Source of the DNA: Trypanosoma brucei
Lineage: Eukaryota
Length of the DNA stretch: 64,000 nt
Assembly: GCA_000002445.1 (NCBI GenBank)
Contig: CP000069.1
Location: 640,001 to 704,000, forward strand
Reading direction: 5' to 3'
The stretch's first letter is position 1, and each line of letters opens with the position of its first letter. The notes under the pieces were generated by a model, which worked only from the letters and a program-made list of their open reading frames with translations, did not search any database and had not been told where the DNA came from. The position numbers were made by a program, and so were the translations under genes. Positions 46,021 to 50,028 of the stretch are shown here, piece after piece.

Positions 46021-49000
46021 AGGCGAGATACCGAAATAACTTTGAATCGGTACTAGCCAAAAAACTAAAATAAATCAGCACTCCAGCTTAACATCAATCT
46101 CCTTCGACACCCATTAAACAAAAAGTGTGGGAAACAATGTAGATACATTTAATGAATCCAGTGATTCAGGCAATCTGCATGAAAGTTGCAAACTACACAC
46201 CCTGAAGAAGCATGTGAATCCACCACTGGGACAGTATAAAGTACAAGGATGTGGACCCTACAGACACCGACAACAGTCCAACACATTCAGCAGTACCTAT
46301 GACGAAATCGTAAACAAACAAACAGAGGGCAAGGAAAACAAAAGATAACTACATCAAGCTCCCGGAGGCCCGGTGGATGATAAATATAATTACCCCCTCC
46401 CGCGAACACAGCTAGTGTCAGCTGACAGAACTGCAAATGGTAAACACAAAGAAACTCACAGGAAGGGCAAGGAAACCAAAAACGGAGACACCGGATTCAC
46501 TGTGCGAAAACGTACGAAACCACCAACGTCGAGGACACACCTCTGACACAAAAGCGCTAATAAGACCCCCGTAACTCCCTCCGATCCCTCCCCCCCCCCC
46601 TCATCCGCACCTGCACCAAGCACGTGTGCACACCACATGCAGCAGCGAGTTCAACCAAACAAAACACGCCTGACAAACATCCCAGAGCACGAAGCACAAC
46701 CTCTAAACGGGCTCCTGAAGAAGATAGCAGAACCCTAAAGAAGGAGAAACCGCCCCACATCGGCAACGTAGCACCATTGCCAGCCTCCTCATTGGCACGT
46801 CCGAGGCCGGTGCCCCGTATTACAGAGGGGGAAAGCCAAGAGCCGGCGGCCTGCCGCACCTGCGCGTGATACACATACGCGTAGTGTACCCCCGGCATTG
46901 CAGAGTAATGAGATCAGAGCACGGTATTAAGGTATTCTCCTGTATTTGTTGGTCTCTTACCACGGGTCAGCGGACTGTTAGCGGCACTGGGGGCGGTTGG
47001 TGACACAGCCCAAGGCGTCGCCGAAGCTGTATGCTGATCTGCGGCTATGCCCGACGATTACACCGCTCGCGGTCAGCCGAAGGCAGGGCATGCAGGGTCT
47101 TACGGAGGTGGGAAATCAACTTAAAAAACTCCTGAAACTTCCCCGATATTTGACTGCTGAGAGCAACCGCAACATCACCCCTTAGCACACGTACACTCCT
47201 CCGTGCCAGCCCCTGATGGGATGCCGACGATACTTCTCATGTTCGCCGATTCGGTGAAAAAACTGCCCCTAACCTTATCAGCATCACTCTCGTTATTATG
47301 GACACTTCTTGCGCATACAACTCCTCGACTCTTGCAGGCTTCGTTGCGTGGCCCGGTTACTATGGCGCCTTCCTCAACGCATACCTCTACAGGCCACTGC
47401 AAGATTTAGTGGAGGAGGCGCCATCCCCCGAAACGGTATGCGCCCGCTTTGGCAGTCCAAACATCAATGAAGTCATCTTTTGATCACTAGGTATCGTGGA
47501 CAGGTCCAGCCCGTGGGGTTACATTTCAGCTTCCGTCAACCCGCCTCTGTTTGCGTTAGCATAAGGTTGCCGGCGAGGAAAAGGTTTCATATATTCTGTT
47601 TACATTGGTTAGTGGCTCAATGGATCCATCGTTCACGGCCATGAACAGAACAAAGTCGGACACCGTTCTTTTTGCCACACGACACGGTCATGTGAGATTT
47701 CCCCAAAACTCGTTGGTTTGTACTGACTCTCGCTATCTTGTTTGGTGGAAAGTTTCTTACCCACCACATAATTTGTAGGTTAGGAGATAACTTCTCAGGC
47801 ACTCGAATTGCGTCACCACTCTCCATGGGTCCAAACTCACGAGTGTAGAGTTAGCTTGACCGTGCTGAGTACATTCGGTTCGTACGAAGTTGCGTCTCCA
47901 ATCAACTGAGTTATCGATTCTGCTGCCGAAGGTTGGCGCAGAAACCTTTTCCTTTTGTAGGCACAACCAACGGTCAACGGAATCCACAAATCTCCTTTGG
48001 ACCAACTACTGCATTGCTTTGTAATTGGCGCAGGTGGGCGCTGTTAGTTTTTGACGATGCCATGACAGCAGTCCCCTTGCTTTCCCTTAACGCCAGTTCA
48101 ATAGCTTCACACCTCCACTTTCCCCGTCAGTTCCCAGTATTTTCGATTCCCGTTGAGTAGTTTTTACATGTGGTTTAGCCCGTTTACCTCCATGTTCTTT
48201 AGTTGGTACACCACAAACGCCATTTTCTTCAGCAGAAGAAGGAAATTTCGATCTTCCTGTGGCAACAATCGGCTCCGGCGTGTGAAACGGTTTGAGTTTC
48301 GCGTGTTCTCAACCTCTGGCACGTTCTTTACCGGGGCATCTGAGAGTTTTGTCTGTCGTTGGTGGCGCATATTTGCCGTTGGTCGCTACCCCTGCTCCTT
48401 CTATCAGCATCTTGCCGTTTGCGAGCAGCACAGAATTGACAATAAACCCATGACAAGCATTAAGGCCGATTATTCCCAGCAACCTTCTTCCGTCACTAGA
48501 TGTTCGGATGAGTCTCTTTTGGATTGTTGAGGTGGTTCCGTATATTGTGTTTTTTCCCCGATATGACGATGATATTGCTTCTCCTTCTTCCCCAATGCCT
48601 CTTTATCCTCATCCTAAATTCTGAGAACTTGATGCCTCGCGTCGACCGGCGTCGCTTTTTCCCCCAGGAATGGTTCTCGTGGAGTGGCCGGGGGTCGGGA
48701 TTATACTATCGTCCATGCTGCTTATAGCCTTCGCTGACTTGCGGAGTCTTCTCTCCATTTTTTTTCTATTTCCATTGGGTGATTCATCACCGTTCTGCAC
48801 TGTCCGAAAGATTGGGAGTATTGGGCATACACTTGTTGTTATTCCATCCGTCCATAACCAAGTGTTGGAGTCAAGTGTTCTTCAGCAGTGGTCGCCGTCC
48901 TGTTTACGATTGCTTGTGCATCCTCGAGGTTCGGCATCTGGGGAAGTGGTGTCTAGGTTCGGTCCCGCCTTGAAGTCCTTTCATTCCACGCAATCGACCC

Positions 49001-50028
49001 CGCACTAGCGAGTCGCACCCCATCATATATGCTCTTGTCCCAGTTGCTTGGGTTCCGTTATTCCGCGAGGCGTATTGGTCTGGACGCAGTGGCGGGGGTT
49101 GGCGTACGCCGTCGCGGCCGGGGGTCCTCCCAACATGCTTGGTATTTTGACCTTCTGCGTGTGCCCGCTGAAACTCTTCATTGGGTGGTGGCCTTGCGGG
49201 TTTGCTTGGCGGGTCCCTCGCTATTTATGGTGTGTAGGTGACGTGCTCTCGGGTGTGCGACGGAGAAGTTTGGCGCGTCAAAGGCTAGAGATGTTAGTGT
49301 AGCTTCCGCCTCGGCTTGTGAGGTATGCGTCCCAAAGGTGGTGGTTTGTGTGTTTGTGTGTGTGGACGCCCTGGCTTCCTGTGGTGCCTCCACCCGAGAG
49401 GCACCGTCCCTGGTGGGGGTGGTTCAGGAAGCCTATAACCTTCTGGGGTCTGCCAGTAGTTTGTTTTCTTTGGATCTCCTTCCGGCATCCGCGCTGAGTA
49501 ATGGTGTGGGAGGGTGGATGCTTTTCCTTGCGGTACGGGAACCCGAGTTTCGGTGCAGTTGGAGTACTTTGCGTGCTCCTGGAGTCTAGCAATGTTTCCC
49601 ACCCTCCACCTGACTTCAAACAGTGCGCCGTTAGTGCTACTTCCACTTCCAGAAGAGGTGTCAGCGGTGGTCTTCCTAGCGTTTTGCTACGTGGTGATGG
49701 CTATCGGCTGCGGTCGTCTTCTCCAGTCGAAACGGATGTGACCGTAGTGCAGGCGTGGTGCTAGCGTTTTCTCTACCTGTTGCTGCCCAAAGCCGTTCTC
49801 CTTAGCGTCGTTTTATGTTGTTCGTTTTAAAATGACTGTCCTTAGCGTAGCGTTGCGTGCAGGTCGTATAAAGCTGCTCGGGCGCCAATATTATGTGTTT
49901 TGGGTGTAACCACCTTCTATTTCTTTCTTCGTATGCTGATTGTTTGTGGACTTATTTTGTTTGCCGGCGATGAGTTTCTGATTTGTATACTCAACTTGTT
50001 CAATATTTAGTTTTTTTTAAATGGCAAC
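46021..50028. promoter_or_regulatory. Divergent strand-switch region separating the minus-strand and plus-strand polycistrons. It is the candidate bidirectional RNA Pol II transcription-start region. The plus strand is CA-rich near the minus unit (46.0-47.0 kb, so GT-rich on the minus strand). The plus strand is GT-rich near the plus unit (48.1-50.0 kb, including GGTGGTTTGTGTGTTTGTGTGTGTGG at about 49326-49352). A (C)11 run sits at 46590-46600.
   Basis: Gene orientation flips here: the last minus-gene start is at about 45.8-46.0 kb and the first plus-gene start is at 50029. No ORF above 125 aa lies between them. The strand asymmetry was read from the sequence. The function is inferred from the known organisation of trypanosome transcription start sites. 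Confidence 0.6.
46772..47007 (+). mobile_element. Copy 2 of the 236-237-bp repeat, element-sense on the plus strand, inside the divergent strand-switch region about 750 nt from the first minus-strand gene. The first ~80 nt (CACCATTGCCAGCC…CCGGTGCCCCGTATTACAGAGGGGGAAAGCCAAGAGCCGGCGGC) resemble the conserved 77-79-nt 5' signature of ingi/RIME/L1Tc/NARTc/SIDER retroposons.
   Basis: Exact reverse-complement identity with 32579-32815. The downstream part (…ATCAGAGCACGGTATTAAGGTATTCTCCTGTATTTGTTGG…GTCAGCGGACTGTTAGCGGCACTGGGGG) also resembles a retroposon 5' region. Neither copy has a target-site duplication or an A-tail at its flanks. Confidence 0.5.

Follow-up and report, generated by a model that had tools for sequence, protein, structure and literature searches.

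The strand-switch region (SSR) of Leishmania major chromosome 1 and the GC-skewed CpG-island promoters of mammals are characterized by bidirectional, dispersed initiation, the lack of a TATA-type motif, and a base composition around the switch point that differs between the strands, with homopolymeric C/G tracts in the case of Leishmania. In Trypanosoma brucei, divergent transcription start regions are said to have been described by Siegel in 2009, and Cordon-Obras et al. reportedly identified, in 2022, sequence-specific core promoters of RNA polymerase II (Pol II) in the SSRs, which the papers citing that work describe as orientation-dependent initiation elements. The genomic context is the same in the locus analyzed here, an SSR of T. 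brucei that occupies a 4-kb interval (positions 46021 to 50028) within a 64-kb stretch of chromosome 6 of T. brucei TREU927 (Tb927_06_v4:640,001-704,000); this whole stretch is referred to below as the window. No sequence relationship connects this SSR with that of Leishmania or with the mammalian CpG islands, and its two arms are T-/G-rich and A-poor rather than CpG-rich.

The closest described systems are the divergent start regions of T. brucei itself (Kolev 2010, PMC2936537; Wedel 2017, PMC5579346), of which Wedel 2017 counts 71. Pol II and primary transcripts peak there at the 5' ends of the H2A.Z regions with a 4:1 sense bias, inversion of start-region fragments costs 3- to 5-fold of their activity, and synthetic concatenated 10-mers enriched on the coding strand lead to orientation-dependent expression and H2A.Z deposition (Wedel 2017, PMC5579346). 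General published statements add that all divergent units carry H2A.Z/H2B.V, H4K10ac, and BDF3, the marks expected over 5 to 10 kb to either side. The locus on chromosome 6 resembles these regions in its head-to-head polycistrons, in the coding-strand G/T-rich 10-mers that include a G-run and (GT)n-like words, in the neutral gap between the arms, and in the low-abundance RNA upstream of the first gene. Nothing essential differs, although the minus arm has few published 10-mers. The locus lies outside the experimental set of Wedel 2017 (PMC5579346), in which both dissected regions, regA and regB, are on chromosome 10.

Strand-asymmetric composition of the strand-switch region

Tb927.6.2150 (minus strand) and Tb927.6.2160 (plus strand) flank the interval, which is a divergent SSR. 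In Table S14 of Kolev 2010 (PMC2936537), these genes start two "Divergent" putative Pol II units, which extend from Tb927.6.2150 to Tb927.6.1300 on the minus strand and from Tb927.6.2160 to Tb927.6.3360 on the plus strand. These entries bear out a preliminary description of the window, which had placed at this site an ORF-free SSR between the first genes of two opposed polycistrons. The open reading frames (ORFs) agree with that description as well: those of at least 150 amino acids (aa) with database or Pfam support are all on the minus strand up to 46020 and all on the plus strand from 50029, and the interval itself contains no ORF longer than 125 aa. Chromosome coordinates are obtained from window positions by adding 640,000, an offset taken from the entries for Tb927.6.2150 and Tb927.6.2160 in the Kolev 2010 tables and checked against the AG and polypyrimidine signals in the sequence. 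Earlier work (Kolev 2010; Wedel 2017) already covers the locus, its function as a two-way Pol II start, and its GT-rich strand bias, and the SSR is likely to be a dispersed two-way start region for Pol II transcription like those mapped genome-wide.

The G+T content of the plus strand is 0.29 to 0.38 over positions 45750-46750 and 0.58 to 0.64 over 48500-50250, and the cumulative keto-skew of the whole window reaches its minimum at 47467, the strand-switch point. Read on the sense strand of its own unit, the minus arm has a G+T content of 0.66 and the plus arm 0.61, compared with a mean of 0.57 (standard deviation [sd], 0.03 to 0.04) in 20 ordinary intergenic segments and 0.53 in the coding sequences (CDSs); the excess over the intergenic mean amounts to 2.6 sd and 1.2 sd, respectively. 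Both arms are marked above all by a low sense-strand content of A (0.15). The gap between the arms measures ∼1.8 kb (46772-48545) when a 236-nucleotide (nt) repeat at the inner edge of the minus arm is counted in. The mirror-image GT/CA skew of the preliminary description therefore stands insofar as each arm is GT-rich on its sense strand, but the mirror is imperfect, as the AT skew changes sign at ∼47.25 kb and the GC skew at ∼48.75 kb. Likewise, most of the two stretches that had been called GT-rich (46.0-47.0 and 48.1-50.0 kb) deserve this name, with the exception of 46772-47000 and 48.1-48.5 kb, which are not notably skewed. Coordinates of the main features are collected in Table 1.

Table 1. 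Features of the strand-switch region and its surroundings (window positions)
Feature	Positions	Strand	Description
Histidyl-tRNA synthetase (Tb927.6.2060)	30664-32097	-	Exact protein match
Repeat copy 1	32579-32814	-	Intergenic, between Tb927.6.2070 and Tb927.6.2060
REH2-associated factor 2	42382-43185	-	Exact protein match
Tb927.6.2150 CDS	44152-45795	-	CDC16/anaphase-promoting complex (APC) subunit homologue with TPR repeats; first gene of the minus polycistron
Minus arm	45796-46771	-	A-poor, GT-rich sense strand upstream of Tb927.6.2150; presumed dispersed initiation zone of the minus unit
(C)11 run	46590-46600	-	Reads (G)11 in the sense direction of the minus unit; inside the minus arm
Repeat copy 2	46772-47007	+	236 nt, adjoining the minus arm on its inner side; opposite in orientation to copy 1
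Neutral core	47008-48545		G+T 0.51; holds the switch point
Hyper-divergent island	47561-47934		375 nt, ∼19% different from T. b. gambiense/equiperdum; sharp bounds
Plus arm	48546-50028	+	A-poor, GT-rich sense strand upstream of Tb927.6.2160
Tb6.NT.51	48811-49907	+	Trans-spliced, polyadenylated RNA, 0.17 per cell (Kolev 2010 Table S7, 688811-689907)
G/T-only tract GGTGGTGGTTTGTGTGTTTGTGTGTGTGG	49337-49365	+	29 nt; "promoter-like tract" of the preliminary description
Tb927.6.2160 CDS	50029-50916	+	295-aa conserved hypothetical protein; first protein-coding gene of the plus polycistron

Published 10-mers, GT tracts, and G-runs

The 10-mers of Wedel 2017 are G/T-rich words that are at least 6-fold enriched on the coding strand and concentrated at the 5' ends of start regions. 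The window was scanned with the 157 unambiguous words of Dataset EV1 (one N-containing word was omitted); 80 words, concentrated in segment 1 of the start regions, were also considered separately. The matches track transcription polarity strictly, with 52 sense and 4 antisense matches in the plus unit. Within the SSR, those on the minus strand end at 46666 and those on the plus strand start at 48546, with none in between on either strand, and the antisense strand of either arm has zero matches. The richest plus-strand bin of the window is 49001-50000, with 19 matches, 13 of them from a single tract, and 15 of the 28 window-wide plus-strand matches of the segment-1 words fall in 49-51 kb. The minus arm contains seven minus-strand matches (46322-46666), only three of them from the segment-1 subset, all of which come from the G11 run.

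The tract that accounts for 13 overlapping matches (49344-49366) is the G/T-only run that the preliminary description had noticed at about 49.33 kb. It does exist, consists almost entirely of words from Dataset EV1, and is identical in TREU927, T. b. gambiense, and T. b. equiperdum. Together with the strand-asymmetric GT-richness of the arms, the presence of these 13 words in Dataset EV1 supports the parallel that had been drawn with reports of directional Pol II initiation at GT-rich elements. Altogether, the window contains seven tracts of at least 24 nt that consist solely of G and T (26 overlapping matches, versus 0.02 matches from shuffles), six of which are on the sense strand of their own array. 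The (C)11 run had been described as lying between the two halves of the SSR; it was found inside the minus arm. It is not a neutral spacer, because it is a G-run on the sense strand of the minus unit, where it reads GGGGGGGGGG(G), and GGGGGGGGGG is the top word of Wedel 2017 (132 coding versus 17 noncoding occurrences in segment 1). The length of this run varies from 10 to 12, with C12 in T. b. gambiense and C10 in T. b. equiperdum.

Of the eight homopolymeric G/C runs of at least 8 nt in the window, seven read as G on the sense strand of the array that contains them, such as those at 11578-11587, 30523-30537, 40836-40856, 46590-46600, 55314-55323, and 62816-62823; the exception is at 21105-21113. 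They include internal runs of 10 nt at 11.6 kb in the minus array and of 10 and 8 nt in the plus array, as well as the 21-nt run that sits 5 kb downstream of the first gene of the minus unit. GT tracts and G-runs are not specific to the SSR, since sense-strand copies occur all along both arrays, so that GT-richness does not serve as the site-specific mark for which it had been taken. The composition of the locus agrees with the published promoter model but does not locate initiation on its own.

Coding-strand 10-mers are densest in the segment 18100-24215 of the minus array, where the sense strand has up to 40 of them per kb, more than anywhere else in the window. This segment has no sense-strand ORFs of at least 150 aa over 6.1 kb and consists of low-complexity sequence, with (TA)n stretches, that is A/G-rich on the plus strand. 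Table S14 of Kolev 2010 gives no internal start for the unit that contains this segment. Some of the segment-1 words in Dataset EV1 are RIME words and are not GT-rich, namely, TAGCATCTCA, which is found within the LB primer for loop-mediated isothermal amplification (LAMP) of RIME, and GGTGATGGCT and GTGATGGCTG, both found within the reverse complement of primer B2. These matches indicate that RIME/ingi copies at the 5' ends of start regions contribute to the list of Wedel 2017. The word GGTGATGGCT is present once in the plus arm (position 49693), alone, without further RIME segments.

Transcripts and splice sites around the gap

The ORF-free 4 kb are not transcript-free, because they hold Tb6.NT.51, one of the novel transcripts of Kolev 2010 (PMC2936537), which by definition bear both the spliced leader and a poly(A) tail. 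Its 5' end is preceded by an AG at 48809-48810 and a polypyrimidine tract at ∼48750-48775. On the minus side, Tables S1 and S3 of the same study list the ORF of Tb927.6.2150 at 685951..684152 and the transcript 5' end at 685809. The corresponding window position, 45809, is the major splice-acceptor site of this gene; it is directly preceded by an AG and a polypyrimidine tract and lies 14 nt upstream of the ATG at 45795. According to the Kolev 2010 tables, the span without processed RNA is 45810-48810, or ∼3.0 kb. The 49.34-kb tract lies ∼530 nt inside the processed Tb6.NT.51, so some plus-strand initiation must occur upstream of 48811, and the tract, which had been termed "promoter-like", cannot be the upstream-most promoter.

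Both the start of the mechanically called ORF of Tb927.6.2150 (a GTG at 46020) and its GeneDB v4 start (45951) are upstream of the acceptor at 45809. The usable start is the ATG at 45795, which gives a protein of 547 aa and matches the T. b. equiperdum annotation. The poly(A) site of Tb927.6.2160 was mapped to 690939-690945 (Kolev 2010, PMC2936537), and one of the compared sequences (L005) terminates at this site. Another ORF-free stretch, 3.8 kb long (51762-55575), follows the GrpE gene; it is taken up by the published novel transcripts Tb6.NT.52, 53, and 54 (52010-52990, 53105-54084, and 54237-55660, respectively). The window also contains Tb6.NT.48 (43878-43357) and Tb6.NT.47 (29535-29075), both on the minus strand. 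The numbering in Kolev 2010 omits NT.49 and NT.50, the numbers between the transcripts on either side of the SSR.

Conservation within and beyond T. brucei

Both T. b. gambiense DAL972 (L003) and T. b. equiperdum (L002) have a collinear counterpart of the SSR. Divergence from TREU927 is 0.06 to 0.7% in three CDSs, 0.4 to 0.5% in the minus arm, 1.2 to 1.3% in Tb6.NT.51, and 5.5% in the core, which makes the arms (0.4 to 1.3%) about as conserved between the subspecies as the CDSs. No alignable sequence was found between the T. brucei SSR and the loci of T. vivax (L009), T. cruzi (L011), and T. theileri (L012). Upstream of the orthologue of Tb927.6.2160, the G+T content is 0.57 to 0.60 in T. vivax, 0.60 to 0.70 in T. 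theileri, and 0.51 to 0.54 in T. cruzi. In T. vivax, this gene has no annotated same-strand gene directly upstream, only a 7-kb gap that separates it from a same-strand HECT gene further upstream, and in T. theileri, it is directly preceded only by a small uncharacterized plus-strand ORF of 128 aa (L012 9449-9835). In T. cruzi, three same-strand genes precede the orthologue, and the strand switch is ∼5 kb further upstream. This comparison indicates that the compositional feature tracks position in the array and not sequence ancestry. The upstream neighbor of the Tb927.6.2160 orthologue is not conserved, and CDC16 is its divergent partner in T. brucei only.

The duplicated 236-nt segment

The preliminary description had also mentioned an embedded retroposon-like repeat copy. 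The repeat itself is real: its two copies are 100% identical over 236 nt (copy 2 compared with the reverse complement of copy 1), have sharp ends, and are found at matching positions in T. b. gambiense and T. b. equiperdum. The two gambiense copies (L003 6742-6977 and L006 9282-9517) have three common variants that TREU927 lacks, and a single site distinguishes one copy from the other. Such covariation of the copies within each genome points to concerted evolution, in which gene conversion acts on the two inverted copies across a distance of 14 kb. To judge from these alignments, the repeat appears to be a low-copy duplicated segment that is held identical to its distant partner by gene conversion. 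No splice or poly(A) entries are given in the Kolev 2010 tables for Tb927.6.2060 or Tb927.6.2070, the neighbors of copy 1.

The "retroposon-like" part of that description did not hold. The Pr77-bearing retroposons (ingi/RIME, L1Tc/NARTc, SIDER, and DIRE) are dispersed and have been reported to accumulate at SSRs; the 236-nt repeat showed none of the hallmarks for which it was checked. Neither the repeat nor the SSR matched TbSIDER1a/b, TbSIDER2, LmSIDER2A, the T. vivax ingi 5' end, or TvSIDER1 in BLASTN and nhmmer searches with query sequences from the supplement of PMC4035085, all of which except TvSIDER1 begin with Pr77. In these homology searches with Pr77-bearing elements, the Pr77 hallmark (CCCTG...GTGGT.TCAGGGTC.AGTAC) was not found at the 5' end of the repeat. 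The T. congolense L1Tco showed no BLASTN or TBLASTX similarity to the repeat, and the eight RIME LAMP target segments (primers from PMC4358998) were absent from both the SSR and the repeat at up to 5 mismatches; elsewhere in the window, these segments had only three chance matches, each with 5 mismatches. There was neither a poly(A) tract nor a target-site duplication at the flanks of either copy. Six-frame translations of the repeat retrieved no protein match, its folding revealed no significant structure (z = -1.25 and +1.90), and a literature search with its substrings found no paper. Within the set of elements compared (the SIDERs, the T. vivax ingi 5' end, L1Tco, and the RIME LAMP segments), the retroposon identity was accordingly rejected, for want of Pr77, a poly(A) tract, a target-site duplication, reverse transcriptase similarity, and RIME segments.

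The neutral core and its hyper-divergent island

One-half of the differences between TREU927 and T. b. gambiense in 44000-52000 (72 of 144) fall in a hyper-divergent island located 100 to 470 nt from the switch point. When 20.6-60.8 kb was tiled in 200-nt steps, the median identity was 99.5%, and the only strongly divergent tiles were those at 47601 (83.1%) and 47801 (88.9%). The equiperdum island has the gambiense form. Conserved blocks alternate in it with highly variable ones, and the differences comprise 44 transitions, 21 transversions, and 7 indel columns. This symmetric, ordinary substitution spectrum argues against hypermutation of the island. Single-base indels disrupt its reading frames; it contains no conserved ORF, and an exact look-up of its small ORFs found no further haplotypes on record. 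Although the island has ∼70 differences, RNAalifold detected no covariation in it (0 compensatory pairs on one strand and 3 on the other), and the SSR contained no Rfam family, at the gathering threshold or at E values up to 10, and no tRNA recognized by ARAGORN.

An origin of the island by overwriting from a diverged paralogue and an origin as an ancient haplotype would each fit these data. As for the converted repeat pair and the island 550 nt further in, they might together mark the core of the start region as a hotspot of nonallelic recombination, a suggestion drawn from sequence comparison that should be regarded as doubtful.

Proposed dispersed initiation and alternative explanations

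In the proposed mode of action of the SSR, Pol II would initiate at many sites in each arm (each ∼1 to 1.5 kb long), preferentially in the direction in which the G/T-rich strand is the sense one. The G/T-rich elements would also favor the deposition of H2A.Z/H2B.V nucleosomes, and the first splice-acceptor signals (45809 for the minus unit, 48811 for the plus unit) would set the first mature RNAs. The GT-rich arms are thereby inferred to act as causal, directional promoter elements at this locus, with a presumed contribution of the 49.34-kb tract to initiation. Some of the data weigh against this interpretation. What marks the locus as a start region is an entry in a supplementary table, together with general statements. 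Six of the seven long G/T tracts are outside the SSR, five of those on the sense strand of the minus array. With its seven published 10-mers, the minus arm is poorer than the internal sites at 7, 18-24, 40.8, and 43 kb, and the interior of the minus array has bigger sense-strand G-runs at 40.8 kb (21 nt) and 30.5 kb (15 nt). The composition of the arms partly reflects ordinary polypyrimidine tracts (∼48750-48775 and 49910-49965), such as are found upstream of both acceptor sites and of Tb927.6.2160. Finally, the DNA more than 530 nt upstream of the 49.34-kb tract, where some of the initiation lies, is only mildly GT-rich.

Much of this would be expected if the GT/CA skew were a passive by-product of polypyrimidine/U-rich RNA-processing signals and transcription-coupled mutation bias, with initiation set by chromatin and/or by short core promoters, of the type attributed to Cordon-Obras et al. 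2022, somewhere in 45.8-48.8 kb. Indeed, a GT bias of the sense strand is common to all 20 ordinary intergenic segments, internal sites surpass the minus arm in the density of published 10-mers, the flagged tract is within Tb6.NT.51, and polypyrimidine tracts stand just upstream of both acceptors; later papers describe sequence-specific, orientation-dependent T. brucei promoters. However, the arms exceed the intergenic background and have a sense-strand A content of only 0.15, the G-rich (GT)n-type words of the plus arm belong to the segment-1 class, unlike the T-rich words found throughout, and synthetic GT-rich elements suffice for directional expression and H2A.Z deposition (Wedel 2017, PMC5579346). 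A purely passive origin of the skew is therefore rather unlikely, though it retains some weight. Two further explanations turn on particular parts of the SSR. If the 236-nt repeat were an ingi/RIME/SIDER/DIRE remnant, its internal Pr77 promoter could seed Pol II recruitment; the authors who described Pr77 report that such elements accumulate at SSRs, one of their papers suggests that Pr77 helps recruit Pol II, and the RIME words in Dataset EV1 are in line with this view. Against it stand the dissimilarity of the repeat and of the whole SSR to TbSIDER1/2, Leishmania SIDER2, the T. vivax ingi 5' end, and TvSIDER1, as well as the other negative results listed above (L1Tco, RIME LAMP segments, poly(A) tracts, target-site duplications, and protein matches), so that this explanation is already largely refuted and extremely improbable, and there is no evidence for the repeat as a retroposon or as a promoter. 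A small-RNA or small-protein gene, unannotated and hidden in the neutral core, could conceivably organize the SSR, given the alternation of conserved and highly variable blocks in the island and a 61-aa ORF of the core that starts with ATG and is identical in T. b. gambiense. Such a gene is nevertheless very unlikely, in view of the lack of tRNAs and Rfam families, the paucity of compensatory pairs, and the frame-breaking indels; moreover, the small ORFs are not in the protein collection, and Kolev 2010 gives no transcript between 685,809 and 688,811.

Neighboring genes and other repeats

An exact look-up of eight ORF translations from the window found seven of them on record, all in Trypanozoon entries. 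Six of the seven recorded proteins are common to T. b. gambiense and/or T. equiperdum, the exception being a 287-aa protein. The product of Tb927.6.2150 has Pfam TPR and ANAPC3 matches, Tb927.6.2160 exactly matches XP_845337/AAZ11778, and the gene that follows it, Tb927.6.2170, encodes Mge1/GrpE. The minus array contains a 238-nt direct repeat (38996-39233 and 39462-39699; 95% identity), whose gambiense counterpart is a tandem pair of genes for the 66-aa ribosomal protein S30. In a Logan contig with the histidyl-tRNA synthetase gene (L008 1-1800), the match to the window begins 35 nt upstream of the ATG, and an unrelated 556-aa ORF lies further upstream on the other strand; this contig is probably chimeric or transcript-derived.

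Implications

Every sequence feature named in the preliminary description was confirmed to be present at or near the place given for it and to exceed chance, whereas the interpretation offered for these features was supported in part; the unsupported retroposon label has been removed. As a discovery, the SSR carries little weight, given that its biology was already on record (Kolev 2010; Wedel 2017). The lesson is that composition alone cannot pinpoint initiation, the most conspicuous GT tract being located inside a processed RNA.

The loose thread worth following is the hyper-divergent island, along with the concerted evolution of the neighboring repeat, which hints at ectopic recombination. 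If that reading were true, one could conceive of a connection with R-loop-associated damage at sites of initiation, or with the activity of origins. If it proved to be general, ectopic gene conversion would preferentially take place in the centers of Pol II start regions in trypanosomes.

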